A DNA stretch of 64,000 nucleotides from an uncultured Acidobacteriota bacterium (GCA_963796275.1 CAWCKY010000004.1:672001-736000); one strand, 5' to 3'; shown: positions 6,914-23,005, numbered from the stretch's first letter. Notes: a model not told the origin generated them from the sequence alone. A program made the numbers and translations.

Positions 6914-7112
6914 GAAGGAGGATTTGAGATTTGAATCTGCTGACTGGCGGATTTATGGATTTGACATTTGGGGCGCCAGCGGCGCGCAAATCCGCAGCAG
7001 GGGCTGATCACAGAATCCGTGCGGTCAGGAAATTTGAGTTTGAGATTCGCCCGAGAATCGGTCTTTCAGTGCGAATCTCAAATTTCAAATCGGATGTCTC
7101 AAATCCTTCTTC
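6914..7112. mobile_element. MITE-like element with 16-bp terminal inverted repeats and internal ATTTGAG-type repeats
   Basis: GAAGGAGGATTTGAGA ... TCTCAAATCCTTCTTC (15/16 complementary); internal GAAATTTGAGTTTGAGATTCGC ... GCGAATCTCAAATTTC palindrome. Confidence 0.55.
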
Positions 7113-7290
7113 GAGGACCGAGCGGCTACGGATGCTCGAAGCCGAGGGATGGGTGTCGCGGGACTACAAACCCACTATCCCGCCGGAGGTTACTTATGCC
7201 ATAACAAAAAAGGTGCTGGAGTTGGACGGCGTGATGATCGAACTCGACCGGATCGCCGAACGGTGGTACGGGAAAGGTCGGGGTTCGTAG
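7113..7290 (+). pseudogene. 3' half of an HxlR-family winged-helix regulator
   Basis: TERLRMLEAEGWVSRDYKPTIPPEVTYAIT matches the HxlR wing motif; the N-terminal helices are absent and replaced by repeat sequence. Confidence 0.75.
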
Positions 7291-7638
7291 ATTATCTCGG
7301 CTGAAAAATACCCGGGCGACGTCGAACCAGCTGCTGAACCTGATCGAGACTGCCATCCTACCTTCGCGCGGCATCACGATCTTAGAACTCGAGCGCTTTA
7401 ACCGGTGTTTTAAGAGAAAGGGCGGAGACGGTGGATGTCCTCTTCGGCGATTGCCAAGATGTTTTTTCAGCGAGAAAAGACTCACTCGATGCGCTTGATT
7501 GATGCCGCGCGGCAGGTCTCTGAGACGACTGGCAGTCACGACTTTATTTACTCGTGTTTTTCTCAGGCAGGGCAAAATGCGAAATGAGGCGTGCCGCGCC
7601 TCCGTAGCAGGCGTTTACAACAGTCGTTAAACACAATG

Positions 7639-10422
7639 TCAGAATTTGAAGCGTATTCCGGCCCAGGCCCCGCGAGGCGCTCCCGGCGCTAGAAAGGTTG
7701 CGTGTTGGAGTGGGAATTCACCATCAACCGCCGCAAACGGCTGCGCAATGAAGTTGCCCTCCGCGGTAAATCCGGTCGGACCCAGTTGCGCGCCCGTGTA
7801 ATACCGCCTGTTGAATAGATTGTTGATGCGGACGAACAGTTCGAGTCGCGGCTGTATCTGATAGCGTGCTCCCAGATGGGCGACCGTGTATGCGGGTGAG
7901 GTGCCGGAGCCGATGTAATATGTCCCATCAGGCTCGTGCTCATTGTTCTCATTGCCCCGCGCGTAGGAACTCGAGAGGGCCAGCACACCGAAATTAACGG
8001 AGAATTTTGAGGTGGCGCGCAGATCGGTAAAAACCTTGAGCAGATGTTGCGGGATGAGCGGGATTCGCGCACCCGGCACAATTTCGATCAATCCGTCGAG
8101 ACCCGGCGCCGCGGCATCGCTGCTGCTGTTGCTTGAACCGTTGACGCTCTCTTCGCTTTGATAGGTAGCGTCGAGAAAGGTGTAATTGCCGCCCAGGCTG
8201 AAAAGCCATATGCGCGTGTTGATGCCCGCTTCCAATCCCTCACGCCGCGTTTTACCGAAGTTCCGGAAATAGCCGAAACCGGTCTGTTCCGACGAGACGA
8301 AAAGTATGTCATTGCGGTTTTCACCGCGGAACAATCCGATATTCCAGCTCACGCGGCTCTCCTCGCTGCTGCGAATCCCGGCTTCGATCGTGCGCGCGAC
8401 GACTTGCTCGAGCGGCGGATCGCCAGCCATCGCATTGGGCAATTTGCAAGGCTCCTCTGGGTCAGCGCAACCGAGTTCGACGGATGTCGGCGCACGGCTG
8501 CCTTCGCTGTAACTGGCATAGGCATTCAGGTATCGCACGGGTCTGAATGTGAGGCCGACCGCCGGGTTGAATCGATCGAATTTATGGCGCCCGTCGAGCG
8601 ATCCCGGACCGCCGCCGGGCATGATGCGATCACGGTTATCTATCGTAGTCCGGTTATAACGTCCCGAGAGCGTAACGTTCAGTCGGTCGCTCACAGCCAG
8701 CGTGTCGGTAGCGTAAAAGCTAAACGTTCGAATACGCCCATTGAGATCGACACGCGTATCAAAAGGTTCACCATCCGCTTCGCCGCCGGTCACGCCATCT
8801 CCATACGAATCGACGCCGGTCACGCTGCGATCAGGATTGAGATAACCCAGTTGGGTGGTTTGCCGGAAATTCAGATGGCTGCGGTCATAAACTGTTCCCG
8901 CCGTCATCTGGTTGCGATGGCCGTGCGGAAAGCCCACCCACGTCAGTTGCCATGCTGTTCCGTAATTATATTGGTCACCGCGCGTGCGGTTGAGGAGCCC
9001 GTTGCAGTTCTCAGCGGGCTCGTCTCTTTGCAACGATTGTGCGATGCAACGCCAGGACGGGAAAGGCGAATTCGCCGCCGTCTCACCGCTCTCCGGGAAT
9101 CCGGTATAACCCGCAGCCGCCAAAGCCTCGCGGTCGTCCGCGCTCGGTTGATAGACCGGCTGATCTAATGAATCTTCGTTGATGTCGCCGTTCAGCGTAT
9201 TGGCGCGGATGGCACGGTAATATGCGTTGCCGGAGACCGTCATTCTCGTATTGAGTCCGTGCCGGACGCTGAAGTTGAAAAATGGAGCGCGATTGGCGGT
9301 AATATCCGGTTTTGTATATATGCTGGCGTAATCGCGACTGAGAAATCGTTGCTCTTGTAGCCCGTTGCCGATGAGAGAATTGTTGGCGAAAGCCGCGGTA
9401 AAGCCGATCATTGTACGGTCGCGTTGCCGCCCCACCTTGCCGAAGAATTGGCGAACGTTCGAAGGCGAATCTGTGCGCCAACCATCTTCGAAGAAGAAGC
9501 TGCTTGCGAGATACCAGTGAAAACCGCCGGCGTTAGAGCCGCCGTGTTCGACATCGGCGCCCAGACGTCCGAAACTCCCGCCGCCCAGTTCCATTGCGGT
9601 GCCGTGCGCATTACGCCCATCTTTCGTCTGGATTGAGACTGCGCCGCCGAGAGTGTTCAAACCGAAAAGCGGATTCGAACCCGGCGAGAGCGCGACTTCT
9701 GAGATCGCAATTCGTGGGATAAGGTCCCAACCGACTACATCGCCAAACGGCTGATTGAGCCGCACACCATCCAGATAAACGGAAAGCCCCTGCGGCGTTC
9801 CCAGCAGCGGTGATGCGGTGTAGCCGCGATAATTGAGGTCGCCCTGATAGGGGTTTCCTTGAATCTCATTCAAGTGGACGCCTTTGAGACGACGATTCAG
9901 AAAATCGGAAATATCGAGCGCATTGCTGGCCCGAATATCACCCACCTGCGCGGCCTGTACCGGCGCTGGTATCTCATCGGCCGCGAGATCGCTGCCGGCT
10001 AAGGGAGTGGATGCAATAACGTCCACGCTGAACGCCAGACTACTCACGGTCAGCGTAACAGTGCGTGTAACGGCAGTCGTTGATTCCACATCGATCAATA
10101 AAGACTGCGTGGCAAATCCGTCGCAGCCGACTTCCAGCCGGTACCGTCCGAAAGGCAATCTATCCAGAATATAGCTGCCTTGCGAATCGGTCCGAAAACT
10201 CCGCTCGATCCCGGTGGTAAGATTGAACAGCTTTCCCGCCGCCGCGACCGCCTTTCCCGATGGATCCCTTACTTCCAGATGGAATTCGCCGGTCGGGATT
10301 TGAAAGAGCCCGATGGTCGCGTCGCTCGCGAAAACACTGACCTTGTGCTGTATGTAGCTCTGCATCAAAACGGGACCGCTCGTGAGCGAATATAAAAGCA
10401 AACCTAACAATCCGTTGCTCAT
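7639..10422 (-). CDS. TonB-dependent receptor with N-terminal carboxypeptidase-regulatory-like domain
   Basis: Plug (LNYRG...[27 protein letters not shown]), barrel strands, INNLFN, C-terminal aromatic (GIRFKF). Confidence 0.93.
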
Positions 10423-10772
10423 GGATCGTGTTGACCTTTCGGTAATTGTGCGTCGGCGATGCCTAATTCGAAACAGCCCTTCCCCTCGAGGACTATAGTT
10501 GCACCATGGGGTAGCGCTTCAGCTGTGCAACATTTATTTCTTTTTTTTCTCTTTTTTATCTCGAGTACTCTTTAGAATTAGAAATAAACACCAAATAGCC
10601 ATCAAAGTAAATACGTTAGAGACGTCGCCTACTCGATCGCCACGGATCTGCATATCCGCCTTTCTCGATCGCGGAGCGCATATAAATTCTACACGCCCGG
10701 CGCTGCACGGACATTTATCGCTCTGATATTGAAACCTGCCCGCACTCAAAGGGCCGGGTTCGCCTTCGCAAT

Positions 10773-13334
10773 CTACTCATACCCAATTGCCTCGACTACC
10801 TTTAGGTTCACCGCTTTCCGCGCTGGCCACCACGCAGCCAGCAGTGCGATCGCTAGCACAATCGGCGATGCGATAAGGACGATCGGTACCGGGAATGCGA
10901 AGGGGATCGTGTATCCCCCGATCATCGCCGAGGCCGTTCGCGTCAAAAAGTAGGTGTTGAAGGCGCCCGCGATAGCCCCGGTCACTATCCCGATTACGGC
11001 GATCACCACGGCTTCGAGCAGGATCATCTTGCGCAACTGGCCGCGCAATCCGCCGATCGCGCGGATCACACCAAGCTCGCGTTTACGCTCGGCGGTCGAG
11101 ATGATTAGGGCGTTGACAATGCCTAACGCGGCAGTGAAGATCGCGACTAGCATCTGCATATGCATCATAGCGAAAAACTGGTCGAGCAATCTCAATATCC
11201 ACGCGCGCCATTCCTCCTGCGTGTAAATGAACGCGCGTTGACTCCCATTGAGTGCGCGCTGCAACTCGCTCTTGAACGTGAGGCGCTCGATGCCCGTCTC
11301 AAGGTTGATGTTGATGATGTCTATCGCCGCGTCGTTCCAATATCGCTTGTAGAGGTCGCGATCAAGAAAGATCGTGCCCTTCTCGGAGGAGTAATCTTCG
11401 ATGACGCCGACGATGGGGCGATCGAACGACTCGGTCGGGGTTTGTAATCTGATGCGGTCGCCCACCCACAGGCCGTAGCGTGTGGCGAAATTGTGCGCGA
11501 CCAACACGCCTTCACCTTTCGTTGTCTGCTCGCGGGCGGTCGCCATGTCGGCGCCCTGGATTTCGAGCCTCATACGCGCGAACCATCCGTCAAACTCCAG
11601 CGCGACGAGCGCAATCGAATCATCCGCGTATGGTAGAAAAGTGAAGCGGACGCTTTCGGTACGTTTAACGCCCGGCAACGCCGCTATCTTACGTGCCAAC
11701 GCTTCATCGAAATGCCAAGTCCTGGATCGCGCGCTTTCGGTCGTGGTCACCACCAGATCGGCGTTGACCGCACGTCTCAGCCATCGATCGAAGACCTCTC
11801 TCTCACTCTCTATGTAAGCAGCAGTGGCGAAGACTGACATCAACCCGATCATCAGCGCGCCGACCGTCGCCGAAGTCCGGCGCGGCGCCTGTATCATCGA
11901 ATCCACCGCCAGAGCGCCCTCCGCACCGAAGAGTCGATCCATCAAGGGCCGCAATGCTCGCGCCGTCAATTCCGACAGCTTCGGCAGCATGGCGACCATT
12001 CCGAGAACGATCAGAACCGCGTAGGAGAATTGAATATAGAGATCGGCGCGTATCGGCGCGAACCGGATCAAGGCCAGGCCTGTCAATACCATCGCCGCGC
12101 CAGCGACCAGCCGCGCCGGCCCGAGCACCGATTCGCGCTGCCTGGTTTCGATGTTGTGCAGCGCCAGCACCGGATTGAGTTGCGCAGCAGCTCGCGCCGG
12201 CATCCACGCGGCGATAATCGAGGCCACCACGCCAAGCGTGAACGACAACATTGCGAAATCCCAGCGAAAGACTGGCGCCTGCCGCGTCGAGACCAGCCCG
12301 TATAGCTGACTTGCGACCGAGCCCATTACCAATTCGACAACCACCGAGAGCCAGAAGCCGAGCGCTATCCCGAGAGCGCTTCCGATCAACCCCATCACCG
12401 CCGCTTCGCTCAGAAACATTCGGCGAACGTTCTTACGCTCGACTCCGATGGCGCGGAGCACGCCGATCTCCTTCCAGCGTTGATTGACCGAGATGCTGAA
12501 TGTGTTGAAGATGATGAACATCCCGACTAGCAGCGCTAGCAGGCTGGTCACGGTCATTCCGATGTTCATCCCCTTGACGGCACTCTCAAGCCCCTGCTCG
12601 CGCGAGGACGGGCGTTCGATTGCCAAACCGGCGGGCAATCGCTCACGCAACCGCTGCCGTAACTCTTCGACTGACACGTCAGGCTCGTTCATCACATCGA
12701 TTCGATCGAAGTTTTCACCGCGTCCGAAAACGAATTGCGCATTTAAGACGTCCATCACAGCAATCTGACCACCGAAGACCTCGCCCATCCCCGACGGCTT
12801 GAAGACTCCGCCGATGGTGAAATCCTTCCTGCCCTGTGAGGTAAACAGAGGCAATCGATCGCCTTCTTTCAATCCGTGTTTTTCGGCGAACGCGCGAGAG
12901 ATGAGAATCGAATCGGGCTGAGTAAGCGCAAGGAGAGGATTACTGATCTCGCTGCTTGAATCATCGAATTGATATTCGCGCAACTCGCCGTCGCCCAGCA
13001 TATTTATGCCGACGATCAGCAGATTGCTTCCGTCTCCCAACGCCGTGTGGGCGATGACCTCGATGGCCGGCTCGGCTATCTTTACGCCCGGCGTGTCCTT
13101 CACCTTCTCCCAGACGCTTGCGGGAAAGCCCGCTTCGCCACCCGATATTTGCAGCGTTGCCTTGCCAGCGATCTTTTCGATGGTGGTCGTCAGCGAATTG
13201 ATCAGCGTCACGTTGGCCGTGCGGACGGCGAAGAATACGGCCACGCCCAACGCGATGCCCAGGAGTGTCAAAAGAGTGCGGAGCGCGTGTTGTCGCCATT
13301 GTTTCCAGGTGATGTTCGCGAACGCTGAAATCAT
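10773..13334 (-). CDS. MacB/FtsX-family ABC transporter permease (duplicated domains)
   Basis: RTLLTLLGIALGVA, two EIGVLRAIG/ELGVIRAIG motifs, PARAAA/PARKA motifs. Confidence 0.92.
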   Translation of the reverse strand: MISAFANITWKQWRQHALRTLLTLLGIALGVAVFFAVRTANVTLINSLTTTIEKIAGKATLQISGGEAGFPASVWEKVKDTPGVKIAEPAIEVIAHTALGDGSNLLIVGINMLGDGELREYQFDDSSSEISNPLLALTQPDSILISRAFAEKHGLKEGDRLPLFTSQGRKDFTIGGVFKPSGMGEVFGGQIAVMDVLNAQFVFGRGENFDRIDVMNEPDVSVEELRQRLRERLPAGLAIERPSSREQGLESAVKGMNIGMTVTSLLALLVGMFIIFNTFSISVNQRWKEIGVLRAIGVERKNVRRMFLSEAAVMGLIGSALGIALGFWLSVVVELVMGSVASQLYGLVSTRQAPVFRWDFAMLSFTLGVVASIIAAWMPARAAAQLNPVLALHNIETRQRESVLGPARLVAGAAMVLTGLALIRFAPIRADLYIQFSYAVLIVLGMVAMLPKLSELTARALRPLMDRLFGAEGALAVDSMIQAPRRTSATVGALMIGLMSVFATAAYIESEREVFDRWLRRAVNADLVVTTTESARSRTWHFDEALARKIAALPGVKRTESVRFTFLPYADDSIALVALEFDGWFARMRLEIQGADMATAREQTTKGEGVLVAHNFATRYGLWVGDRIRLQTPTESFDRPIVGVIEDYSSEKGTIFLDRDLYKRYWNDAAIDIININLETGIERLTFKSELQRALNGSQRAFIYTQEEWRAWILRLLDQFFAMMHMQMLVAIFTAALGIVNALIISTAERKRELGVIRAIGGLRGQLRKMILLEAVVIAVIGIVTGAIAGAFNTYFLTRTASAMIGGYTIPFAFPVPIVLIASPIVLAIALLAAWWPARKAVNLKVVEAIGYE

Positions 13335-14041
13335 TTGGCCGCCTCCGCTGAGAGGCTCGCGCGATCCTCATTTACTACCCGGCCGTCGCGCAATCGCAAG
13401 ACGCGGTCGCAATGCGCGGCGGCCTCTTCGTTATGCGTGACCATAAGGATCGTAGTATTAAATTCACCATGAAGATCGTCGAGCAACCCCAATATCTCCT
13501 CGCCGGTCTTCGAATCGAGGTTACCCGTAGGTTCGTCGGCCAGCAGGATCGGCGGTTGGAAGATCAATGCTCGCGCGATTGCGATTCGCTGCCGCTCACC
13601 GCCCGACAATTCATCGGGGCGATGCATGATGCGTCCGCCCAATCCGACTCTCTCGATCATTGCTTTGGCGCGCTGATCAGCTTCTCGACGCGACTGCCCC
13701 TGAAGTCTGAGAGGAAGCGAGATGTTTTCAAGTGCTGTCAGTGTTGGCAGCAGGTTGAACGTCTGAAAGACCATTCCGATCTTTTCGCGGCGCAATCTGG
13801 TCCGCGCATCGTCATCGAGCAAAGCGATATTCACCCCTTCAATATTGACCGCGCCAGACGTCAGATCGTCCAGACCGCAGATCAGATTGAGCAGCGTCGA
13901 TTTGCCCGACCCCGACGGCCCCATCACCGCGATGCGTTCGCCGCGATCAATCTTGAGGCTCACGTTGTCGAGAGCGCGCACGCCCTTGGCGTCGTCGTAA
14001 TAGCGAGAGACTTTTTCGAGTTGAATCATAACATCTATCAT
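13331..14041 (-). CDS. LolD/MacB-type ABC ATP-binding protein
   Basis: Walker A GPSGSGKS, LSGGERQR signature, LLADEPTGNLD, H-loop VTHN; ATGA overlap with the permease. Confidence 0.96.
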   Translation of the reverse strand: MIDVMIQLEKVSRYYDDAKGVRALDNVSLKIDRGERIAVMGPSGSGKSTLLNLICGLDDLTSGAVNIEGVNIALLDDDARTRLRREKIGMVFQTFNLLPTLTALENISLPLRLQGQSRREADQRAKAMIERVGLGGRIMHRPDELSGGERQRIAIARALIFQPPILLADEPTGNLDSKTGEEILGLLDDLHGEFNTTILMVTHNEEAAAHCDRVLRLRDGRVVNEDRASLSAEAAK

Positions 14042-14578
14042 AAATTAAACACTGGCGCTTCCAAATGCCGATGGTTGGCTACTCTGACGTTGACCAGATT
14101 GATTCCTTATCTCTTTAGGAACTGGAGAACGACCGGCGCGGTTCGCTTCCCCAGATCGAATCAATAACCGGTACGTTGCACAAGTTCCGTCACATTTATC
14201 CCAATCGATTGCTTGAAAACGGTTGCGACACCGTCACACTGCAACATCGGCCATGGCATCTATTGGCACAAATTCGCTTAATACTCATTCTGTATAAATT
14301 CGCCCGTTTTCATAAATTCTCCCTGTCAATTTGATAAGCGCCATTGAATGGATTGAATCAATTGGTTTATAAAGCAAAAGTCATTCCGTGTGGAGTCTGC
14401 GAAATTAGAAAGCCCGTCGCGGGCGTTTTGAAGGCTCCAATTGGGAAACGCCTATTTATATCCCCTTCCCCCGAGGGTGGCGGCCCCTCTGGCAATCAAA
14501 TCATCGTTCGTAAGACATCGGCGCGGCTTTCTCGGTATGGCGCGGTGATGTTCACTGTCCTTAAGCAGAGGAGGAACC

Positions 14579-15613
14579 ATGGTTCAACAATTCCTGCGCG
14601 GGCGAATCAAGTCGAGTTATCGATGGCTGACCGCCGTCGCGCTCTTTTTGACTGTGAGCTTTCACTGTGCCGATGCGCGGACGCCGCGCGAACGCAGCTT
14701 TTCTTTCGAGTACGTAGCGGCCGTGAAGAATATCCCGGCGGGCGCCAAAGTGCTGGAGCTTTGGCTGCCTATCCCACACAACGACCCTTACCAGGCGATT
14801 GCAGACCTTCGTATCGAATCGTCACAACCTTACCGGATGCACTCGGCACAGTACGGCAATAAAATGCTGAATATCGAAGTGAAAGACCCTCAGCCGGCCG
14901 GCTTCACCGTCACCCTCAGCTTCAAGGCCACGCGCCGGGAGCACATCAACCCTCTCGTTGGTCAGAGCCATCCAACCGCTTCGCCGAATGAAGAGACTGA
15001 CCGCGACATGGCCAGGTGGCTTCAACCGGACCGTCTGGTGCCTCTCGATGACAAGATCAAAAATTGGGCGGTGGAAGTAGTCGAAGCAGCGCAGGCCAAG
15101 ACCGATTTGGAAAAGACTCGAGCCATCTATCAGCACATCGTTGCGACGGTGAAGTATGACAAGTCCGGGCAAGGTTGGGGACGCGGGGACATTTACTATG
15201 CCTGCGACGCCCGGCGAGGTAACTGCACCGATTTTCATGCGATCTTCATTGGTTATTGCCGAGCGTTGGGTATTCCGGCGCGCTTTGCCATCGGCTTTCC
15301 TTTGCCGTCGGAACGCGGGGCCGGCGAGATCAGCGGTTATCACTGCTGGGCGGAGTATTACGTGAAAGGCCTGGGATGGGTCCCCGTTGACGCTTCAGAA
15401 GCGGCGAAAGACCCCCAACGGCGAGACTATTTCTTCGGAGCGCACGACGAAAACCGCATTGAATTCACGCGCGGGCGCGACCTCACACTCACCCCCAAAC
15501 AGAAAGGCGACGCGCTCAATTATTTCATCTACCCGTACGCTGAGGTAGATGGGAAGCCCTTCTCCGGTGTCGATCGAATCTTCAAATATCGTGATCTGAG
15601 GCAGACACAATAA
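14579..15613 (+). CDS. exported transglutaminase-like (Cys-His-Asp) protein
   Basis: GNCTDFH, YHCWAEYY, GWVPVD triad motifs; hydrophobic leader; GAGGAGG RBS. Confidence 0.88.
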   Translation: MVQQFLRGRIKSSYRWLTAVALFLTVSFHCADARTPRERSFSFEYVAAVKNIPAGAKVLELWLPIPHNDPYQAIADLRIESSQPYRMHSAQYGNKMLNIEVKDPQPAGFTVTLSFKATRREHINPLVGQSHPTASPNEETDRDMARWLQPDRLVPLDDKIKNWAVEVVEAAQAKTDLEKTRAIYQHIVATVKYDKSGQGWGRGDIYYACDARRGNCTDFHAIFIGYCRALGIPARFAIGFPLPSERGAGEISGYHCWAEYYVKGLGWVPVDASEAAKDPQRRDYFFGAHDENRIEFTRGRDLTLTPKQKGDALNYFIYPYAEVDGKPFSGVDRIFKYRDLRQTQ

Positions 15614-15673
15614 GCTCGCTCTGTTTACTCAGTGCCGACATATGTCTCCTCCTCAGATTTGGCTATCCTGTGA

Positions 15674-16372
15674 TTATGGTTTTGCGACGGACTCTAACGC
15701 TTTAGCTAGTAGCTCCGTCTTGAAACCAAATGGACCGGCCTCACTTTTGAAAGCTATCTGCCCGCGACTGTCTATAAGGTAAAGCCTATCCGGCCAGGCG
15801 GTGTAAGCGACCTCCGTCTTATTATCTATAGTGTCGACTAACGCCGGAAATTCTATGCCCAGTTTGGTTGAGCATGTGTCAGCTAAATTCAAGCGCTCAT
15901 CATAGTCCTTCGGATAGTCATACACTACCTTCTCCTTCTCGTTCACTTCCATTTGCCACCCATCGCCGGCATGCGCTTCTTGAATGTACACCAGATAGAA
16001 TTCCACCTGATTTCTATACTGCTGATAGAGTTGGTTGAGAGCGGGAACCTCCCGCCGAAATGGCGGTCAAGTATAGCTACCAAAAACTAATACGACCGGC
16101 TTTTTACCCCTGAAGGCAGAAAGCTGTACTCTTGATTGCCGGTCAAATGTTTCCAAAGAGAAATCGGGAGCGATGTCCCCAGCCTGCAGACTGCCTTTTC
16201 TGGCCGATAACCACATCTTCCTGAAAGGGAAGATCGGGAAAACGACGTTGGATGTTTTAGACATGATCCCGCTAAAAACTTCCGGGCTCTGGCACATCGC
16301 AATGTAGAATCCAACGAACAAGAGCGGATATAACAGCAACAAGGGGAAGGTAATTTTCAATACTCGTCGCAT
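15674..16372 (-). CDS. iodothyronine deiodinase-like selenoprotein (232 aa, Sec at UGA 16069-16067), N-terminal membrane anchor
   Basis: ORFs 16067..16372 and 15674..16006 are in the same frame and join as VLVFGSYT-UGA-PPFRREVPALNQLYQQYRNQVEFYLVYIQEAHAGDGW; APDF, YTAWPDRLY and GPFGF motifs also present. Confidence 0.92.
16041..16066 (-). promoter_or_regulatory. bacterial SECIS-like element
   Basis: UGA, 11-nt spacer CCGCCAUUUCG, then GCGGGA-GGU-UCCCGC perfect stem with GU in the loop; same geometry as the E. coli fdhF SECIS. Confidence 0.75.
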
Positions 16373-16522
16373 ATACTCCTCCCAATTGATTAATAACCGA
16401 CCAGCGGACGCGAGCGATACCGCTCCATCAAGCCGCGCAGCTTCTCATCAGCTTCTTCCTATTAACTCATCCCTGCCGCTACGCGGCAATTCGGCATGGG
16501 CGTTAAACGACCAGACTGAATG

Positions 16523-17809
16523 TCAATAGTTCTTTAGCTGGCGGAGTCCCTCGTAACTCTTGCCATACGTCTCCTGGTAAGTCTTGATCGCTTCGTCTTC
16601 GGAAGGCAGGCGCAGCCCGTCGGTGAAGCGGTTCATATACGCGAAATTGCCGCATTGCAGCAACACTTCCAATGCGCCCTGTTCTTTGAATTCGGCGACC
16701 AGCGCCGCGTAATCGCTCTTCGTCAGTTTCGCCGGCTCGCGCGTGATCTTACGAGCGAAGGTAACCGCCGTCAGTTCGCGCCGAGTCAGCGCTGAATCGT
16801 CTTTCGCCATCGCCATCAGCTTCGACGGATCAACGCCGAGCCGTCGCAGCCCCAAGACCTGATGCAGTGTGCAGTAGCGGCAGCCGTTCGCCATTGAAAT
16901 GGCGAACGAGACGTGCAACTTGATTTCGCGGCTGACGCTCTCGTATTTACGCGTCGTCGTCGTGTAGGCCCGCCACAGGCGACTGATCCCGGGCACCAGT
17001 AAAAACGCGCGCTGCGAATTGGCGATGCCGATATTCCAGTTGTTGGTTGGTGTTTTCGCCCCATTCAATGTCTCGGTAACTGCATTCATTTGATCGTCGG
17101 AGACAAGCGCCACGCGCGCGGGCAGCGGTTCAAATTTTGCCGGAGCGACCTGCGCGACGGGTTCCTTCAAGGCCCATTTCTCGACGGGCAGGTTTGCGCC
17201 TTCACAGAAGCGGAGGAAGTAGTTGAAGAAACAGGTCGTCATCGTCAGTTCGACGATCTGCGAATCGTTGAAGAGAGAGCGCGTCTTTTGAAACTCCGCC
17301 TCGTTGACGCCATGAATGTCGCGGGTCAGCAATTCGGCGTAACTCACTGCCGCCCGTTCGCTCGCGGACATTGCCGCGAAGTCGTTCGCCTGCATCTGCG
17401 CGAGCAGCTTCTGCCCTTTCTCCGAGGCGCGCAGCAATCGCTGCAGATGAATAGCCGGATACGCGCTGCCATAGACCTGTGCGATGCGCAGTCCCATTGC
17501 CATTTTGGCCTCAGGGGCAATTGTGCCGCCGTAAAGATAGGCCTCGAATGCCGCGGCGAAAGGTTTCGCAGCGGCGGGAAGTAATGCCAGAGCCCGAACG
17601 TAATTCGGAATCCTGCCCGCCTCCAATACATCCGCGCCGTTGCAGATGTCGGAGTTTTCATCAGCCAGCGGGACGTTTGGTTGCGCGTTGAGCTTCTGTT
17701 TGGCAGTCTCATTGAGCGCCTCCAGAGAGGTCAGTGAATCTTTCTCCTTCGCGAATGAGGTTGCAAACGATGCAGCGATGATAAGCAATGAGGTGATTAA
17801 GAGTTTCAT
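16523..17809 (-). CDS. exported protein with tandem AhpD/carboxymuconolactone decarboxylase-like domains
   Basis: Signal peptide; two CMD-like repeats; second has ISMANGCRYCTLH (CxxC..H), first has YGSAYPAIH without the cysteines. Confidence 0.85.
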   Translation of the reverse strand: MKLLITSLLIIAASFATSFAKEKDSLTSLEALNETAKQKLNAQPNVPLADENSDICNGADVLEAGRIPNYVRALALLPAAAKPFAAAFEAYLYGGTIAPEAKMAMGLRIAQVYGSAYPAIHLQRLLRASEKGQKLLAQMQANDFAAMSASERAAVSYAELLTRDIHGVNEAEFQKTRSLFNDSQIVELTMTTCFFNYFLRFCEGANLPVEKWALKEPVAQVAPAKFEPLPARVALVSDDQMNAVTETLNGAKTPTNNWNIGIANSQRAFLLVPGISRLWRAYTTTTRKYESVSREIKLHVSFAISMANGCRYCTLHQVLGLRRLGVDPSKLMAMAKDDSALTRRELTAVTFARKITREPAKLTKSDYAALVAEFKEQGALEVLLQCGNFAYMNRFTDGLRLPSEDEAIKTYQETYGKSYEGLRQLKNY

Positions 17810-17875
17810 AAATCTCCAGGGATGGTTATCTACGGCAGCCTCCCCAGACTGCCATACAGGTAATTGAACCCCGCT

Positions 17876-20800
17876 TCAAAAAATAAACCGTGCGCCAATT
17901 TGCAGCGTGCGCGCTTCGAACGCCTGCGTCGACTTGCCGAAATTGCCCAATGAGAGATCAGCGTTCGGCAGGTAGAGATTCACGTTGTTGAACGCATTGA
18001 ACGCCTCAAAACGAAGCTGGATTTGCTTGCCTTCCAGCACCGTAAAGCTGCGCGCGAGCGACAGATCCACGGTTGAATAGTTCGGCCCGCGGAACGTGTT
18101 TCGGCCGAGCGTGCCGGACTGCCCGGGCGCCGGAGCCGGAAAAGCCCCGGCGGGAAATAGCCCGTCGAGAAAGTCTTTCTTCTCGGGCGACGTCTTGATT
18201 GCGCCAGACGCCGATGCGTTCGGGCGGTCATAAAAACCGCCGCCGACCGCGCCGCCGCCGCCATCGCGGTTGTAATCGCCGCCTGCGGTCGAAGCCGCTC
18301 CGTTCCAGACCGAAAACGGTCGACCCGATTGCATCGTGAAGATTGTCGCCAGCTGCCAGCCGTTGACCGCATAAGATATCCATTTGTTTCCGGTCGTCCA
18401 TGACGGCAGCCATAACAATTGCCCCGAGAAGCGATGTGGGATGTCGAAAAGCGAAGGCCCCCGCTCGCAACCCAAACAATCTATATCGACCGCGCCTTTG
18501 CCGGGCTCGGAGTTGTCGGCGAATTGTCCCGTCGAAGTATCGGACGATGTGTCCAACCATTTCGACCGGCGGTAATTCGCCTGCAGCGAAAACCGCTGCG
18601 AGAGATTACGGCGCACTTCCAGGGTCATCGCGTGATAGATCGAATTCACGCCGTTCGTCACAAACAGCAATGTGCTGAAGTTCGGATTGATGCGGTCTTC
18701 CTTGCCGTCGAGCAGATCGCCCGCAAAACGATTGACATCATCGATGCGCTCCAGGTTGACGCCTCTCGTCCCGGTGTATCCGGCTTCGACGACCAGACCA
18801 TCCAATACCTCGCGTTGCAGGTTTACAAACCAGCTCTCGCTGTATTGCGTTTTGATCGTCGGGTTGACGACGAAACCCGTGGGGCGAATAGCGTTCTGCC
18901 CCGGAGGCGTATTGACGCCTCCCTGCGCGTTCAGGCCGCGCCCGAAGTCCGGATTGTACGGCACCGGAATGCCATACAGGATCGTCGTGCCGATCTTATT
19001 GGAAGGCTGCACGACCCCCTGCAACGCATCGGGCGGGAGGGCCCGCGCGCCGGAGATCGATTGGCCGTGATGCGGTTGATACGCGAGGCTGAAGCCCGCG
19101 CGAATCGCCGATTTGCCATCGCCGAAAGGGTCGTAAGCGAGACCGATGCGCGGAGAGAAATTCGTCTTTTCAGGTGTGTAGAGCCGGTCAACGCGAGTCA
19201 GGCTGGCGTTGGCCAATCGTTCGCGGAAGCTGTCGCCCGGGCCGTAGACGATGGAAGACAACCTGCCTTCGCGTTCGCTCGCGTCGCCGAAGTAATCGTG
19301 GCGCAGGCCCAGATTCAGATTGAGTTTTGACGTGACCTTCCAATCGTCCTGAAAGAAAAAGGCGGTCTCGACCTGGGTGAAGTAACGCGGAAAGTTCGTC
19401 CGCTCGCCGGTGTTCGGGTTGACCGTCAGGGTTTGACGAAAGGGCTGATCGGCGATGAAGCTGGCGATGCTCGTGAAGGTATATGTTCCCGCGTCCGGAT
19501 CCGCGATGGATAGCCCTTTGAACAGACGGCGAAATTCTCCGCCTACGCGCAGCACGTGCCGCCCTCGATCCAGCGTCATCACGTCGCGCAATTCGTAGGT
19601 GCGAATCTTCGTCGCCGAGTTGAAGAAATCTCCCCAGCCGGCCGTGAAGCCCGTCGCCGTAATCTGCGGAACGACGGCATCGTCATTGCCGCGATTGGTG
19701 TAGATGGTTTGAAACGCGAATCGCGCGTCGTTGACGGCGCGCGTGAAGACTTTGGTATAGCCCAGATTGGTGTTCGAAAACCTCCCCTCAAATCCGCCTT
19801 TCATTCCACGCATCACGCGGCCCAGCCCTGACTGGTTGACGCTGCCGCTGGTCGCGCCGCTGTCGTCGGCCTGATCTTCAAAAATATAGCGCCCGTAAAT
19901 TTTGTCTTTGCCCTCGTTGAACGAATGATCCACACGCCCCAAAAACTGGCTGTAGCGAACGTAATCACTGATCGTCGTGAAGAGCGTTCCGTTCGTCGGG
20001 ATGAGTTGTCCGTTACCGATATTCAGGCAGTCGTTGTTGGCGACCGCGCAAGCGCCGACTCGCTGCGGCGCGGGCGCGCTATATTGGGTCAGCAGTCGAT
20101 TGGCTATGCTGTTCGGAGCGGTACGACTGACATATTCGCGCAGTTGCGGAGTTTCGACCTGAAAGGACGCCGGGCGACCCGCGGCGTTGCGCGTGCCTTC
20201 ATAACTGCCGAAGAAAAAGGTCTTATCCTTGAGGATCGGCCCGCCCATATTGCCGCCGAACTGATTGAAAACCAGCGGAGGAGTGCCCGTCGCAAAAAAG
20301 TTGCGCGCGTTGAGTGCCGCATTGCGATGGAATTCCCACAGGCGACCATGGAATTGATTCGTCCCGGATTTCGTTCGCAGGTTGATGACGGCCCCGTTGC
20401 CGCGCCCAAACTCGCTGGAAAAATTGTTGGTCTGGATCTGCGCTTCCTCTATCGCCTCGATACTCGGCACGATCGCAGGTTCGCCGGAATTGTTCGAGTT
20501 AGAGTTCATCGCTCCGTCCAGCACGTAGTTATTGCCGCGATAGCGATTGCCGTTGACCGTCACAACCGGCGAATTGGTGAGCTTCGTCGAGTTCGCCGCG
20601 CCGGGAATAAACGTTGCGCCGGAGCTGAGTTTCGGGAGCGCGTATACGTCGCGCTGCGGAATCGGCAACTCGGAGACTTTCTTCTGATCCAGCGTATCCG
20701 CGACGCGCCCTTCCGTGGCGATCTGTAACTGCGTTGTCCCCGCCTCGATGTTGATGACCTCTTCCACATCTCCGACGCTCAATTGAATCTTTAACTCCGC

Positions 20801-21112
20801 CATCTGCCCGACGTTGAGCTTGAGATTCTTGTGCGAGAAGGCTTTGAAGCCGTTCGTTTTCAACGATACGGCGTAGCTGCCGGATGGCAATCCTGCAATT
20901 GTGGCCTGGCCGTTGTTGTCCGTGACAGCCGTTCGCTTAATGCCGGTCTCTTCGTTTGTGACCTCAACCGAAGCCCCGGTGACGGAATTGCCCTGTATAT
21001 CAGCCACACTCAATTTGAGTGTCGCATCTGTGACCTGGGCGATAGTTGCGGGCGAGAGCAGAGCCAAAAGCAATGCAAAGAGAAAAATATGACTTGGGGG
21101 AAGCAGTTTCAT
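17876..21112 (-). CDS. Oar-like TonB-dependent receptor with carboxypeptidase-regulatory-like N-domain
   Basis: Signal peptide, VTNEETG, PSIEAIEE, TKSGTNQFHG, QDDWKVT..LNLGLR, PRIGLAYD, LRFEAFNAFN, terminal RFIF. Confidence 0.94.
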   Translation of the reverse strand: MKLLPPSHIFLFALLLALLSPATIAQVTDATLKLSVADIQGNSVTGASVEVTNEETGIKRTAVTDNNGQATIAGLPSGSYAVSLKTNGFKAFSHKNLKLNVGQMAELKIQLSVGDVEEVINIEAGTTQLQIATEGRVADTLDQKKVSELPIPQRDVYALPKLSSGATFIPGAANSTKLTNSPVVTVNGNRYRGNNYVLDGAMNSNSNNSGEPAIVPSIEAIEEAQIQTNNFSSEFGRGNGAVINLRTKSGTNQFHGRLWEFHRNAALNARNFFATGTPPLVFNQFGGNMGGPILKDKTFFFGSYEGTRNAAGRPASFQVETPQLREYVSRTAPNSIANRLLTQYSAPAPQRVGACAVANNDCLNIGNGQLIPTNGTLFTTISDYVRYSQFLGRVDHSFNEGKDKIYGRYIFEDQADDSGATSGSVNQSGLGRVMRGMKGGFEGRFSNTNLGYTKVFTRAVNDARFAFQTIYTNRGNDDAVVPQITATGFTAGWGDFFNSATKIRTYELRDVMTLDRGRHVLRVGGEFRRLFKGLSIADPDAGTYTFTSIASFIADQPFRQTLTVNPNTGERTNFPRYFTQVETAFFFQDDWKVTSKLNLNLGLRHDYFGDASEREGRLSSIVYGPGDSFRERLANASLTRVDRLYTPEKTNFSPRIGLAYDPFGDGKSAIRAGFSLAYQPHHGQSISGARALPPDALQGVVQPSNKIGTTILYGIPVPYNPDFGRGLNAQGGVNTPPGQNAIRPTGFVVNPTIKTQYSESWFVNLQREVLDGLVVEAGYTGTRGVNLERIDDVNRFAGDLLDGKEDRINPNFSTLLFVTNGVNSIYHAMTLEVRRNLSQRFSLQANYRRSKWLDTSSDTSTGQFADNSEPGKGAVDIDCLGCERGPSLFDIPHRFSGQLLWLPSWTTGNKWISYAVNGWQLATIFTMQSGRPFSVWNGAASTAGGDYNRDGGGGAVGGGFYDRPNASASGAIKTSPEKKDFLDGLFPAGAFPAPAPGQSGTLGRNTFRGPNYSTVDLSLARSFTVLEGKQIQLRFEAFNAFNNVNLYLPNADLSLGNFGKSTQAFEARTLQIGARFIF

Positions 21113-21210
21113 GTTCTATCTACCGATTCAATGTTGTCGTTTATCGTTGAATACCACTTAGTTGGTTAGGATAGGATTTCCCTTTGTGGAAACTTTACGG
21201 CTGGTTCATT

Positions 21211-21226
21211 AGCAATTTCTCCGCCA
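21211..21226 (-). promoter_or_regulatory. candidate sigma54 (-24/-12) promoter of the TBDR-AhpD-selenoprotein operon
   Basis: Minus strand TGGCGGAGAAATTGCT has GG-N10-GC with TGGC and TTGCT, about 100 bp upstream of ATG 21112. Confidence 0.45.
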
Positions 21227-21991
21227 CGGTTTGCAAAGAAGAGGCGCTCCTTTGGCAACTTATTCACACCATAAAAAATAAGAAGTTTTTGCCTTCTAAA
21301 ATTCGGAAGAAGAATACGAATCCAGGTGGCGAGATTTAACGAGGGTGGCGACATATCGCCAATAGACGCGATATATTGCGCCTTTTTAAGAGGGAGTTCC
21401 GCGATCTATGAACATCGACAGTACGGCCAGAATCAGGTTATGGCCGTACTGACAGACATTTTCACCGAGCGGAGAATTGTAAGCGAAATTGTGGAACTTC
21501 TTGGCCGGCCACTCTGCCTATTTTGGTGTAATGCGATGCAGGACGGACGGAAAACGAGGGCTTGGGCCTGTCGTATAGGTTGGACTCTGCACCTTCGCTT
21601 TTGTAACTTGTAAATTTAGAACGGCAAGGACTGATTCTCTAGCAGGTTCACATGCTATTCAGTTCTACACGCTGATAGTCTTCGATGTCTTGCACGCTGT
21701 TCAGGAAATTCAGATCACCACTAAAATGCAGCTCGAATTCACTCAGCCGGGCGGTTATGTTCCAAGTCTCAGCCGGGCGCGTAATGTGTGATTATCCAGG
21801 CTATGAACTTTGGCATTGGAAATCGCCGTGAAGAGCACAATATGTTGTTGTTTCAACCTACAAGGGCTTGATAACGGTTCTGTTGCAAATAAATTTTCAG
21901 CCACAATCTGTGGTAGCATGAATTAGCAGATCACATAAAAATCTTGTGTATTCGGGGCATTTTGCAACAGACCCGAATTGAATATAACCAA

Positions 21992-23005
21992 ATGACCACC
22001 AAGCCGATTGAATTCTTACTGGAAAATGCCCTGGCTTTCCGCGCCACATTATTTGATGAGCGGCACGAAACGGCGTTTCGACTCTTCAATGGATTTACCG
22101 AAGGCGCTCCGGATCTGGTGGCGGACATTTACGCCAAAACGCTGCTCATTCATAACTATGCTGAACGGCCGGAAGACGGGGTGGCCTTGGTGCGCGCAGC
22201 TCAACAGTTTCTGCTGGCCAGCTTACCCTGGATTCGGACGGTGATTGTTAAGACGCGCCACAGCCAGTCCTCAGAGGGAAAGCGCGGCAGCATAGTCTAT
22301 GGAGAAATTGCGGATCGGAAGATCCGCGAAAACGGTATCTGGTATGCGATTGATCTGATGATCAATCGCGACGCCAGCTTCTATCTGGATACGCGCCCGG
22401 TTCGGCATTGGGCGCAACAACAGCTCAAAGACAAATCCGTTCTCAATACCTTTGCCTATACCGGCAGTCTCGGAGTCTCGGCTCGAGCGGGCGGGGCGGA
22501 GCGGGTAGTCCATCTGGATTTGAACCGAAATTTTTTGAATTTGGCTAAAACTTCATACACGCTGAATGGTTTCCCGATCGACAAAAAAGATTTTAAAGCC
22601 GGTGACTTCTGGTCTCAAATCAATCGCCTGAAAGCAACTGATGAAGGTTTCGACTGCGTTTTTCTCGATCCGCCTCTCTATTCAGCTACTCGGAAAGGCG
22701 TCGTGGATCTCTTGCAAAGCTACGCGCGACTGATCAATAAAGTGCGCCCCTTGATTAACCACGGCGGCTTCCTAGTGGCGATTAATAATGCGCTCTTTCA
22801 TTCTGGCGCGGCGTACCTCAAGGAGATCGAACAATTATGCGCCGACGGATACTTGACGGTTCAAGAGTTGATTCCGGTACCGGAGGATTTTGTCGGCGCC
22901 CAACAGACACCCGCTGCCGCACTGGCAGCCGATCCAACGCCCTTCAACCATTCAACCAAAATCGTCGTTCTTAAAGTCCGTCGCAAAGCTTCGTCGAGCG
23001 GCTGA
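21992..23005 (+). CDS. RlmI/RlmK-like class I SAM-dependent methyltransferase
   Basis: FRLFNGFTEG, FYLDTR, VLNTFAYTGSLGV, FDCVFLDPP motifs. Confidence 0.85.
   Translation: MTTKPIEFLLENALAFRATLFDERHETAFRLFNGFTEGAPDLVADIYAKTLLIHNYAERPEDGVALVRAAQQFLLASLPWIRTVIVKTRHSQSSEGKRGSIVYGEIADRKIRENGIWYAIDLMINRDASFYLDTRPVRHWAQQQLKDKSVLNTFAYTGSLGVSARAGGAERVVHLDLNRNFLNLAKTSYTLNGFPIDKKDFKAGDFWSQINRLKATDEGFDCVFLDPPLYSATRKGVVDLLQSYARLINKVRPLINHGGFLVAINNALFHSGAAYLKEIEQLCADGYLTVQELIPVPEDFVGAQQTPAAALAADPTPFNHSTKIVVLKVRRKASSSG

Follow-up and report, generated by a model that had tools for sequence, protein, structure and literature searches.

A conserved receptor and tandem AhpD-fold gene pair in Acidobacteriota, and a seleno-deiodinase gene that probably joined it secondarily

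The window analyzed here is a 64,000-nucleotide stretch of DNA from an uncultured Acidobacteriota bacterium (G000:C4:672001-736000), the assembly of which comprises 9.46 Mb in 7 contigs with a completeness of 94.7% and a contamination of 5.2%. On the minus strand of positions 15674-21226, lists of open reading frames (ORFs) under genetic code table 11 and with TGA read as selenocysteine (Sec, U), together with translation, give three co-oriented genes that encode a TonB-dependent receptor (orthogroup TBDR-A), an exported protein with two AhpD folds in tandem (AhpD2x) and a deiodinase-family selenoprotein (dio). The genes are spaced by gaps of 66 bp (17810-17875) and 150 bp (16373-16522), an arrangement identical to that given in an earlier prediction from the same DNA (the original prediction), and the export or anchor signals that it assigned to all three products are also what we read by eye from the N-termini. 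Each of the three genes is intact and evolves under purifying selection, with ratios of nonsynonymous to synonymous substitution rates (dN/dS) of 0.09-0.17. We find that the receptor and AhpD2x form a specific and conserved pair, as judged by gene neighborhood and sequence identity. The three genes together are probably the remnant of a longer, fast-rearranging array, in which the receptor and AhpD2x would constitute the functional unit and dio would have joined secondarily.

AhpD2x was surveyed in the 400 other sampled Acidobacteriota genomes and in a pattern scan of one genome per species, which added 32 loci, almost all with a Blastocatellia or Acidobacteriota label. Full-length relatives are present in only four of the 400 genomes (G050, G149, G211 and G086), and in all four a receptor 59-63% identical to that of the window lies directly upstream in the same orientation. 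Of the 29 pattern-scan loci with upstream sequence, 25 likewise have an orthologous receptor (57-91% identity) immediately before AhpD2x; in the four exceptions (L117, L122, L126 and L131) the upstream genes, where readable, are regulators or pilin-like proteins. Because orthologues occupy the upstream position in 25 of 29 and four of four loci, while the closest paralogue of the receptor in G000 is only ~30% identical, the pairing is both specific and conserved at the level of sequence. By the same comparisons, TBDR-A and AhpD2x are the only genes discussed here that stay together over deeper divergence, from which we infer that they are a functional unit, plausibly one that couples uptake to periplasmic redox chemistry. 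Judged by co-conservation, the absence of which the original prediction had named as grounds for refutation, its three-gene module holds for the receptor and AhpD2x, which are paired, and fails for dio, which is not co-conserved with the pair.

A conserved ORF of ~170 residues, with a signal peptide and no Cys, lies between the receptor and AhpD2x in three of the four sampled genomes and in six of the 32 loci (for example L097:10381-10893, L098:10292-10882 and L099:8474-8977), and elsewhere in four more of the 32. G000 yielded no copy of it, and neither Pfam nor NCBIfam has a match. In the distant locus L097, a gene upstream of the receptor on the same strand (14545-16254, -) encodes a membrane protein in which a MauE/DoxX part is fused to two thioredoxin-like domains, a candidate electron donor to the periplasm. 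Four records titled Heliobacteriaceae or Heliomicrobium (L107, L109, L110 and L128) carry a Blastocatellia-type receptor-AhpD2x pair (72-76% identity), which suggests mislabelled records, not a firmicute origin.

The receptor has a CarboxypepD_reg domain (PF13620, E 2e-15) followed by a PF25183 barrel (E 1.5e-152), with an additional match to PF00593 (E 3.9e-8), and so has both the beta-barrel and the N-terminal domain expected of its family; its N-terminus, MKLLPPSHIFLFALLLALLSPATIAQ, has the look of a cleavable signal peptide. No Plug family is matched in the receptor at E <= 0.01 in Pfam, and residues ~113-246 occupy the place where a plug is expected. Receptors of this type are abundant in Acidobacteriota: G000 holds at least 65 members of the TonB-dependent family, and at least 121 loci longer than 1.8 kb are detected by tblastn. 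The dN/dS of the window's receptor is 0.09-0.12.

AhpD2x begins with MKLLITSLLIIAASFATSFA, which also resembles a cleavable signal peptide, and residues 275-338 in its C-terminal half match PF02627 (E 6.6e-9; 36.1 bits against a gathering score of 23). With 77.6 bits against TIGR01926 it falls short of that subfamily's cut-off of 81.8, and the Cys and CRYU forms alike stay under every curated NCBIfam cut-off. The AlphaFold2 (AF2) model (predicted local distance difference test, pLDDT, 81.7; predicted template modelling score, pTM, 0.82) consists of two helical domains. Foldseek returns domain-sized matches only to AhpD-fold proteins, namely AhpD (6k40), 2oyo, 3c1l and Bmp8 (6ohi and 6ohj), with target template modelling scores (TMt) of 0.73-0.80, and full-length matches only to Sestrin2 (5cuf and 5t0n) with a query score (TMq) of ~0.5; the Foldseek E-values, 1.2e-3 to 9e-3, lie slightly above the tool's line of 1e-3. 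A single CxxCxxH site, C310-R-Y-C313-x-x-H316, is located in the C-terminal domain, whereas the N-terminal domain lacks a Cys motif and has S115..P118..H121 at the equivalent site.

C310, C/U313 and H316 are invariant in 36 aligned AhpD2x orthologues. In nine of these (L107, L111, L113, L114, L115, L118, L119, L123 and L127) the fourth codon of the motif is TGA (CRYU); the ORF then appears to stop after ...GCRY, and a conserved hairpin-forming sequence and ~115 in-frame codons follow the TGA. A site where Cys and Sec replace one another is typically a catalytic redox residue. Since the second Cys of CxxC is replaced by UGA in a quarter of the aligned orthologues, the switch marks a live redox centre in AhpD2x, as read from the alignment, and the dN/dS of 0.14-0.17 was obtained for the Cys form in the window. 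We propose that the receptor would bring a substrate into the periplasm and that AhpD2x would act on it, with its C-terminal CxxC(U)xxH centre probably performing a two-electron thiol or selenol reduction; possible substrates are peroxides, disulfides or selenosulfides, and halogenated compounds.

The distribution of dio is of a different kind. Homologues at E <= 1e-15 are present in 45 of 401 sampled Acidobacteriota genomes, G000 counted. An AhpD2x-like gene is found by tblastn within 1.5 kb of the dio homologue in none of 29 other Acidobacteriota genomes, and within ~9 kb in none of the 20 genomes with longer flanks; these counts include the unpublished genomes G049, G152 and G024, without which they become 0 of 26 and 0 of 18. 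No other gene of the array described below lies near dio in these genomes, and all-against-all BLAST of up to four neighbors per side (149 ORFs) gave no family common to more than two to four dio loci. Pfam annotation of the 78 ORFs nearest dio gave a heterogeneous set with no CMD domain. Conversely, the four sampled genomes with the receptor-AhpD2x pair (G050, G149, G211 and G086) are all absent from the list of dio hits, and dio follows AhpD2x in only two of the 32 pattern-scan loci (L104 and L105), 24 of which have at least 2.7 kb of downstream sequence, so that no peroxiredoxin-fold partner gene is conserved beside AhpD2x in these loci. The synteny across Acidobacteriota that the original prediction had proposed as a check does not extend to all three genes, which occur together only in a shallow clade and mostly with other genes between them. 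As far as these genomes and loci go, dio stands alone in most Acidobacteriota and belongs to an array only in a shallow, roughly genus-level clade.

Two other candidate partners of dio were considered. A receptor lies within 1.5 kb of dio in two of the 29 genomes, against ~1-3 expected by chance because each genome has from 24 to more than 51 receptors, with at least 121 loci in G000, and we reject a general receptor-dio linkage, which is unsupported. A flavin adenine dinucleotide (FAD) enzyme of the Trp_halogenase family (PF04820, 47 bits) is encoded together with a sigma54 activator downstream of dio in L104 (7198-9411), and the same pair lies upstream of dio on the opposite strand in L148 (2134-4335); in G000 the corresponding pair is on contig C1 (1229217-1231475), and it is not near other dio genes.

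In close relatives of the window, dio belongs to a longer array with the order TBDR-A, (the ~170-residue exported protein), AhpD2x, a DUF3179 selenoprotein, a single-domain AhpD-like selenoprotein (AhpD1), dio, a 199-residue membrane protein (mem199), a YtkA-like protein and a polyferredoxin-like protein. In 23 of 36 loci AhpD2x has DUF3179 and/or AhpD1 downstream of it. The DUF3179 genes of L101 (9290-10582) and L105 (4707-5987), the two in which the TGA was read, have an in-frame TGA in the motif TYUTLC, and their products have three membrane helices predicted at the N-terminus; besides these two, about a dozen loci show a DUF3179 homologue by tblastn immediately after AhpD2x. The motif of AhpD1 is CFYU, as read in L104, and the protein scores 105 bits against TIGR01926, above the cut-off, and has no signal peptide. 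A metagenome scan with dio gave 62 loci, 23 of them with a dio at least 79% identical to the window's and 17 of these 23 with upstream sequence. Directly upstream of dio in these 17 close-clade loci we find AhpD1 in nine, DUF3179 in three and neither in five, and AhpD2x is seen in four; L135 has the complete order receptor, AhpD2x, DUF3179, AhpD1 and dio. Downstream of dio, mem199, usually followed by the YtkA-like gene and the gene for a 520-residue polyferredoxin-like protein, is found in seven metagenome loci and in L105. The composition of the array varies in both directions, since dio occurs without AhpD2x in L145 (a 38-residue receptor relic, then AhpD1 and dio), L147, L140 and L148, and the pair occurs without dio in L101 and more than 20 further loci. 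In the eight loci at 64-69% identity and in more distant ones, dio has no array gene nearby, except that L165 and L166 each have a receptor of another kind and L166 also an AhpD1-like gene (35% identity).

Alignment of the window to L135 shows how the present arrangement came about. The window lacks L135 positions 7061-8390, which hold DUF3179 and the start of AhpD1, and 8441-8963, which hold the rest of AhpD1, and between the two a 50-bp relic of AhpD1 is left inside the spacer that separates AhpD2x from dio (Table 1). On the other side, homology to L105 and L135 extends ~55 nt past the dio stop codon, into a relic of the mem199 start. On these alignments, AhpD2x and dio are direct neighbors because deletions removed DUF3179 and AhpD1; the 150-bp gap is the scar of the two deletions, and the adjacency is recent and secondary. 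The genes missing here are partly found on another contig of the same genome, where C7:253638-257255 holds what is left of the 3' end of DUF3179, then an intact AhpD1 of the CFYU type, 255 unrelated bp at the place of dio, and then three membrane genes that encode a 199-residue membrane protein, a YtkA-like protein and a 520-residue polyferredoxin-like protein. No DUF3179 gene is found in G000 at E <= 1e-8. By this comparison, G000 has two complementary, partly decayed copies of one array. In terms of the history that we propose, dio would have joined the array in the shallow clade, and the two deletions would have placed it 150 bp behind AhpD2x.

Two observations concern the flanks of these arrays. 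In L101, the closest relative without dio, an IS605-type OrfB transposase gene (10525-11658, -) follows directly after DUF3179, and it is a possible cause of the rearrangement there. In the window, a transglutaminase-like gene at 14579-15613 (+) converges on dio, as it does in the window-like metagenome contigs L190 and L193; at an unrelated dio locus (G259; L054:7245-8333) a transglutaminase-like gene, 31% identical, also adjoins dio.

dio itself is, as judged by its sequence and coding context, a true bacterial deiodinase-like protein and is credibly decoded with Sec. Its ORF is open only with the sole in-frame TGA read as Sec. Residues 51-228 match PF00837 over model positions 63-235 of 237 (E 3.3e-30; 105.6 bits against a gathering score of 27), and the solved catalytic domains of Dio3 (4tr3, E 8.6e-21) and Dio2 (9h48, E 4e-19) are matched with EAHAGDGW aligned to EAHPSDGW, the deiodinase insertion, in both. 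G98, S99, U102, P103, F105, R106, E132, A133, H134, W139, Q140 and R196 are invariant in 21 dio homologues. Against NCBIfam NF038285 (deiodinase_rel, a hypothetical equivalog) dio scores 207.8 bits, below the cut-off of 250, and matches only model positions 177-340 of 347. The N-terminus consists of MRRVLK followed by a hydrophobic stretch of 20 residues; in the window's protein and three relatives, two to three positive charges precede this anchor and fewer follow it, and by the positive-inside rule the catalytic domain is predicted to face the periplasm. Tat export, which MRRVLK brings to mind, was rejected, since the RR is not kept in L048 or L053. The gene is present in a single copy in G000, and its dN/dS of 0.13-0.15 against two close relatives means that it is not decaying.

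Within the matched region, 41 of the 45 dio homologues have exactly one TGA, one has two and three have none. G000 encodes one tRNA-Sec, selA, selB and selD, and selD (C7:302299-303228) has an in-frame TGA of its own. A hairpin resembling a selenocysteine insertion sequence (SECIS) follows the UGA of dio (Table 1), and by a scripted count 19 of 20 homologues have, 7-14 nt past the UGA, a hairpin with five or more base pairs and G/U in its apical loop. The stems vary by clade with the pairing kept (GGCGGGA/UCCCGCC versus GGCGCUC/GAGCGCC). Two results count against the SECIS-like hairpin: RNAalifold, run on the post-UGA stretches of 20 loci, does not return it, the pairing registers of the two clades being offset by one base, and the best 40-nt fold in the window is a competing hairpin. 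Single 40-nt folds have modest z-scores. An Rfam scan of positions 14000-23000 at E <= 1 gave zero matches. Since tRNA-Sec, selA, selB and selD are all present and the hairpin starts 10 nt past the UGA, Sec decoding of dio is credible. The membrane-anchored seleno-deiodinase of the original prediction is thereby supported by the PF00837 match, the UGA at 16067-16069, the Sec machinery and the anchor-like N-terminus.

How the genes are transcribed can be suggested from the spacers. A sigma54-type element with correct -24/-12 spacing precedes the receptor gene and is kept in the two closest relatives, L101 and L104, in an otherwise diverging spacer, and rpoN is present in G000. The pattern is weak alone, with three matches in the window against 1.05 expected and at least three in nine of 100 shuffles; none of the 19 other loci examined has a match in the 300 bp upstream, and the distant orthologous loci L097-L100 lack the exact core before the receptor gene. 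No sigma54 activator gene adjoins the operon in the window, although one is present in the same locus in L104 and L145. The possible sigma54 promoter of the original prediction thus keeps its spacing, its conservation in L101 and L104 and the presence of rpoN, and is weakened by the shuffles and by the 19 loci without a match. No terminator-like site is predicted in the two spacers of the window, and for this reason dio is probably transcribed by read-through from AhpD2x. Between the receptor gene and a divergent gene for an S-adenosylmethionine (SAM)-dependent methyltransferase (21944-23005), ~830 bp (21113-21943) lack a convincing ORF.

Table 1. Coordinates of the three genes and associated features, counted from the first nucleotide of the window
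Feature	Position	Strand	Details and basis
TonB-dependent receptor, CarboxypepD_reg/Oar-like, orthogroup TBDR-A	17876-21112	(-)	1078 residues, signal peptide; Pfam
AhpD2x, exported tandem AhpD/CMD-fold protein	16523-17809	(-)	428 residues; PF02627
CRYC redox-motif codons of AhpD2x, Cys form in the window	16871-16882	(-)	Alignment of orthologues
dio, deiodinase-family selenoprotein with N-terminal membrane anchor (residues ~7-26)	15674-16372	(-)	232 residues; PF00837
In-frame UGA read as Sec, codon 102 of dio	16067-16069	(-)	Motif FGSYT-U-PPF
SECIS-like hairpin GGCGGGA-GGU-UCCCGCU, 7 bp, GGU loop	16040-16056	(-)	Starts 10 nt past UGA; minimum-free-energy fold of 76-nt context
50-bp relic of AhpD1 5' part, inside the 150-bp spacer	16410-16459	(-)	80-86% identity to AhpD1 of L104, L135 and G000 C7:253791-253830
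Relic of mem199 start	15617-15673	(-)	Frame stops after 19 codons; MSALSKQ... versus MSVLSKQ... of L105
Sigma54-type -24/-12 element TGGCGGAGAAATTGCT, possible receptor-gene promoter	21211-21226	(-)	~100 nt before receptor ATG

The arrangement in the window invites the reading that the three genes work as one operon, in which the receptor would import a compound, the anchored dio would reduce it, for example by reductive dehalogenation, and the CxxC of AhpD2x would re-reduce the Sec of dio. AhpD reduces AhpC, which sets a precedent, and the co-orientation, the short gaps, the spacers without terminator-like sites, the N-termini that predict a periplasmic location for both enzymes, the occurrence of dio downstream of the array in six related loci besides the window, and the resemblance to Dio3 (E 8.6e-21) and to the AhpD-fold debrominase Bmp8 (E 1.8e-5, TM-score 0.75) all agree with it. 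However, dio and AhpD2x are not co-conserved beyond the shallow clade, their adjacency was produced by deletion, relatives keep dio without AhpD2x and the pair without dio, and Bmp8 is a weaker match than generic peroxidase-related proteins, so that we consider such a three-gene system quite unlikely. Nothing indicates that AhpD2x is the dedicated reductant of dio; a relay between them is possible, and unsupported. The partners of dio might instead be its ancestral flanks, that is, AhpD1, with which it would make an AhpD/peroxiredoxin-like pair, and/or the mem199-YtkA-polyferredoxin module as an electron source, both now acting in trans from C7. AhpD1 is directly upstream of dio in nine of the 17 metagenome loci and in L104, the mem199 module is directly downstream in seven metagenome loci and in L105, where the ORFs overlap, AhpD1, mem199, YtkA and the 520-residue protein are together on C7, and a 2026 review (PMC13188914) describes metagenomic operons that group Prx-like with AhpD-like selenoprotein genes. 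This explanation is unlikely as well, given that AhpD1 has no signal peptide whereas the dio domain is predicted to be periplasmic, and that none of these genes is near dio outside the close clade, an association as shallow as that with AhpD2x. A broader scheme, in which the ancestral array was one TonB-fed periplasmic pathway with up to four Cys/Sec enzymes and a polyferredoxin module, dehalogenating or reducing Se/S-oxidised aromatics, and in which the window holds a minimal three-gene version that still works, would place a Bmp8-type AhpD-fold enzyme and a deiodinase side by side on aromatics from soil; we regard it as very unlikely, and the dehalogenation idea itself derives solely from the resemblance to Dio3 and Bmp8.

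Shared regulation or selenium supply could also hold otherwise unrelated selenoprotein genes together, as suggested by the three to four Sec-encoding genes that stand in a row in relatives, by the free variation of gene content and order among close relatives, and by the operons of adjacent, otherwise unrelated selenoprotein genes that PMC13188914 describes. We find this account doubtful, since the receptor and AhpD2x remain paired over deep divergence even where AhpD2x has the Cys form and where the genome is without the other genes, which points to a shared function for the pair. To our knowledge, nearly all characterised TonB-dependent transporters are importers, and with at least 65 such receptors in G000, most of them surely importers, it is extremely improbable that the receptor works outwards, delivering AhpD2x onto the cell surface or into the medium, even though it is tightly paired with an exported protein and shares its architecture, CarboxypepD_reg and a barrel, with Oar, which reportedly works outwards for the protease PopC in Myxococcus (PMC6434023). 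Several points weigh against the reading that we prefer, of a receptor-AhpD2x unit joined secondarily by dio: (i) in six close-clade loci (L104, L105, L135, L141, L143 and L144) dio is co-oriented at the 3' end of an array with AhpD2x present; (ii) AhpD2x and dio, both predicted to be periplasmic, could meet, which is the best point for a relay; (iii) after the deletions dio stayed with the receptor and AhpD2x, not with AhpD1, which would fit a functional tie; (iv) conservation of the array in a shallow clade does not separate selection from recent common descent; (v) a different receptor subfamily adjoins dio in another family, upstream in L051, L165 and L166 and downstream in L054, although these receptors are related to one another (44-82% mutual identity) and therefore count as about one event; (vi) the loci from peptide-pattern scans are biased to close relatives; and (vii) signal peptides, anchors and topologies all come from by-eye reading of N-termini.

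With respect to known systems, the seleno-deiodinase is genuine and of a known kind. PMC1088965 traces bacterial deiodinase-like selenoproteins to the Sargasso Sea metagenome, and they have had no known function since 2005; deiodinase-like, AhpD-like CxxU and DUF3179 UxxC proteins are all listed as selenoprotein families in PMC13188914. The window's dio has in common with the bacterial deiodinase-like selenoproteins the thioredoxin fold, the active-site Sec, the SECIS hairpin past the UGA, the existence of Sec and Cys forms and a function assumed to be redox, but differs in its N-terminal anchor, its score under the NF038285 cut-off and its location in a Blastocatellia-clade array with a receptor. 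With Dio3 and Dio2 it has in common G-S-x-T-U-P-P-F, the E-A-H-x-x-D-G-W insertion, the R of (D/E)-R-L-Y and a single N-terminal anchor. At the place of the Cys in the GAPGCAL stretch of Dio3, however, the window's dio has FP, and C167, the only other Cys in its domain, is limited to one subclade; Dio3 and Dio2 act on iodothyronines, and no such substrate is expected in a soil bacterium.

AhpD2x shares with AhpD/TIGR01926 proteins (6k40, 2oyo and 3c1l) the all-helical AhpD fold (TMt 0.76-0.80) and, in its C-terminal domain, CxxCxxH, but has two folds per chain, a signal peptide, a Cys-less first domain and no adjoining AhpC gene. The tetrabromopyrrole debrominase Bmp8 (6ohi and 6ohj) has the AhpD/CMD fold in common with it (E 1.8e-5, TMt 0.73-0.75), whereas Bmp8 is a single-domain protein from a biosynthetic gene cluster without a receptor and a weaker match than generic AhpD-like proteins; its thiol-based reductive dehalogenation reportedly parallels that of deiodinases. 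Sestrin2, like AhpD2x, has two AhpD-like halves in one polypeptide, but is eukaryotic and cytosolic, with 11% identity and a high root-mean-square deviation, and the resemblance is architectural only. The selenoprotein clusters described in PMC13188914 (Prx-like with AhpD-like genes, and the Tso and SAO operons) likewise have several Sec redox genes side by side; their families are other ones, the present array is headed by a TonB-dependent receptor, the copy in the window is without two of the selenoprotein genes, and the receptor entry in the same review belongs to a different, FCYXU-type family. Full-text literature searches, with supplements excluded, turned up neither the array nor a receptor-linked, exported (seleno)protein with tandem AhpD folds in any paper, and the receptor-AhpD2x pair is a real unit that is apparently undescribed.

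Should the ancestral array after all prove to be one TonB-fed pathway, it would give bacterial deiodinase-like proteins their first physiological role. As it stands, gene context gives these proteins no conserved partner across Acidobacteriota, which tempers the idea of a seleno-deiodinase recycled by an AhpD-like protein. The array has decayed in complementary fashion on two contigs of G000, which illustrates cleanly how deletion can create what looks like an operon. In Blastocatellia the receptor-AhpD2x pair heads a rearranging row of selenoprotein genes, with AhpD2x itself in the Sec form in a quarter of orthologues, and this pair offers a concrete starting point for learning which compounds soil Acidobacteriota take up and reduce in their periplasm.

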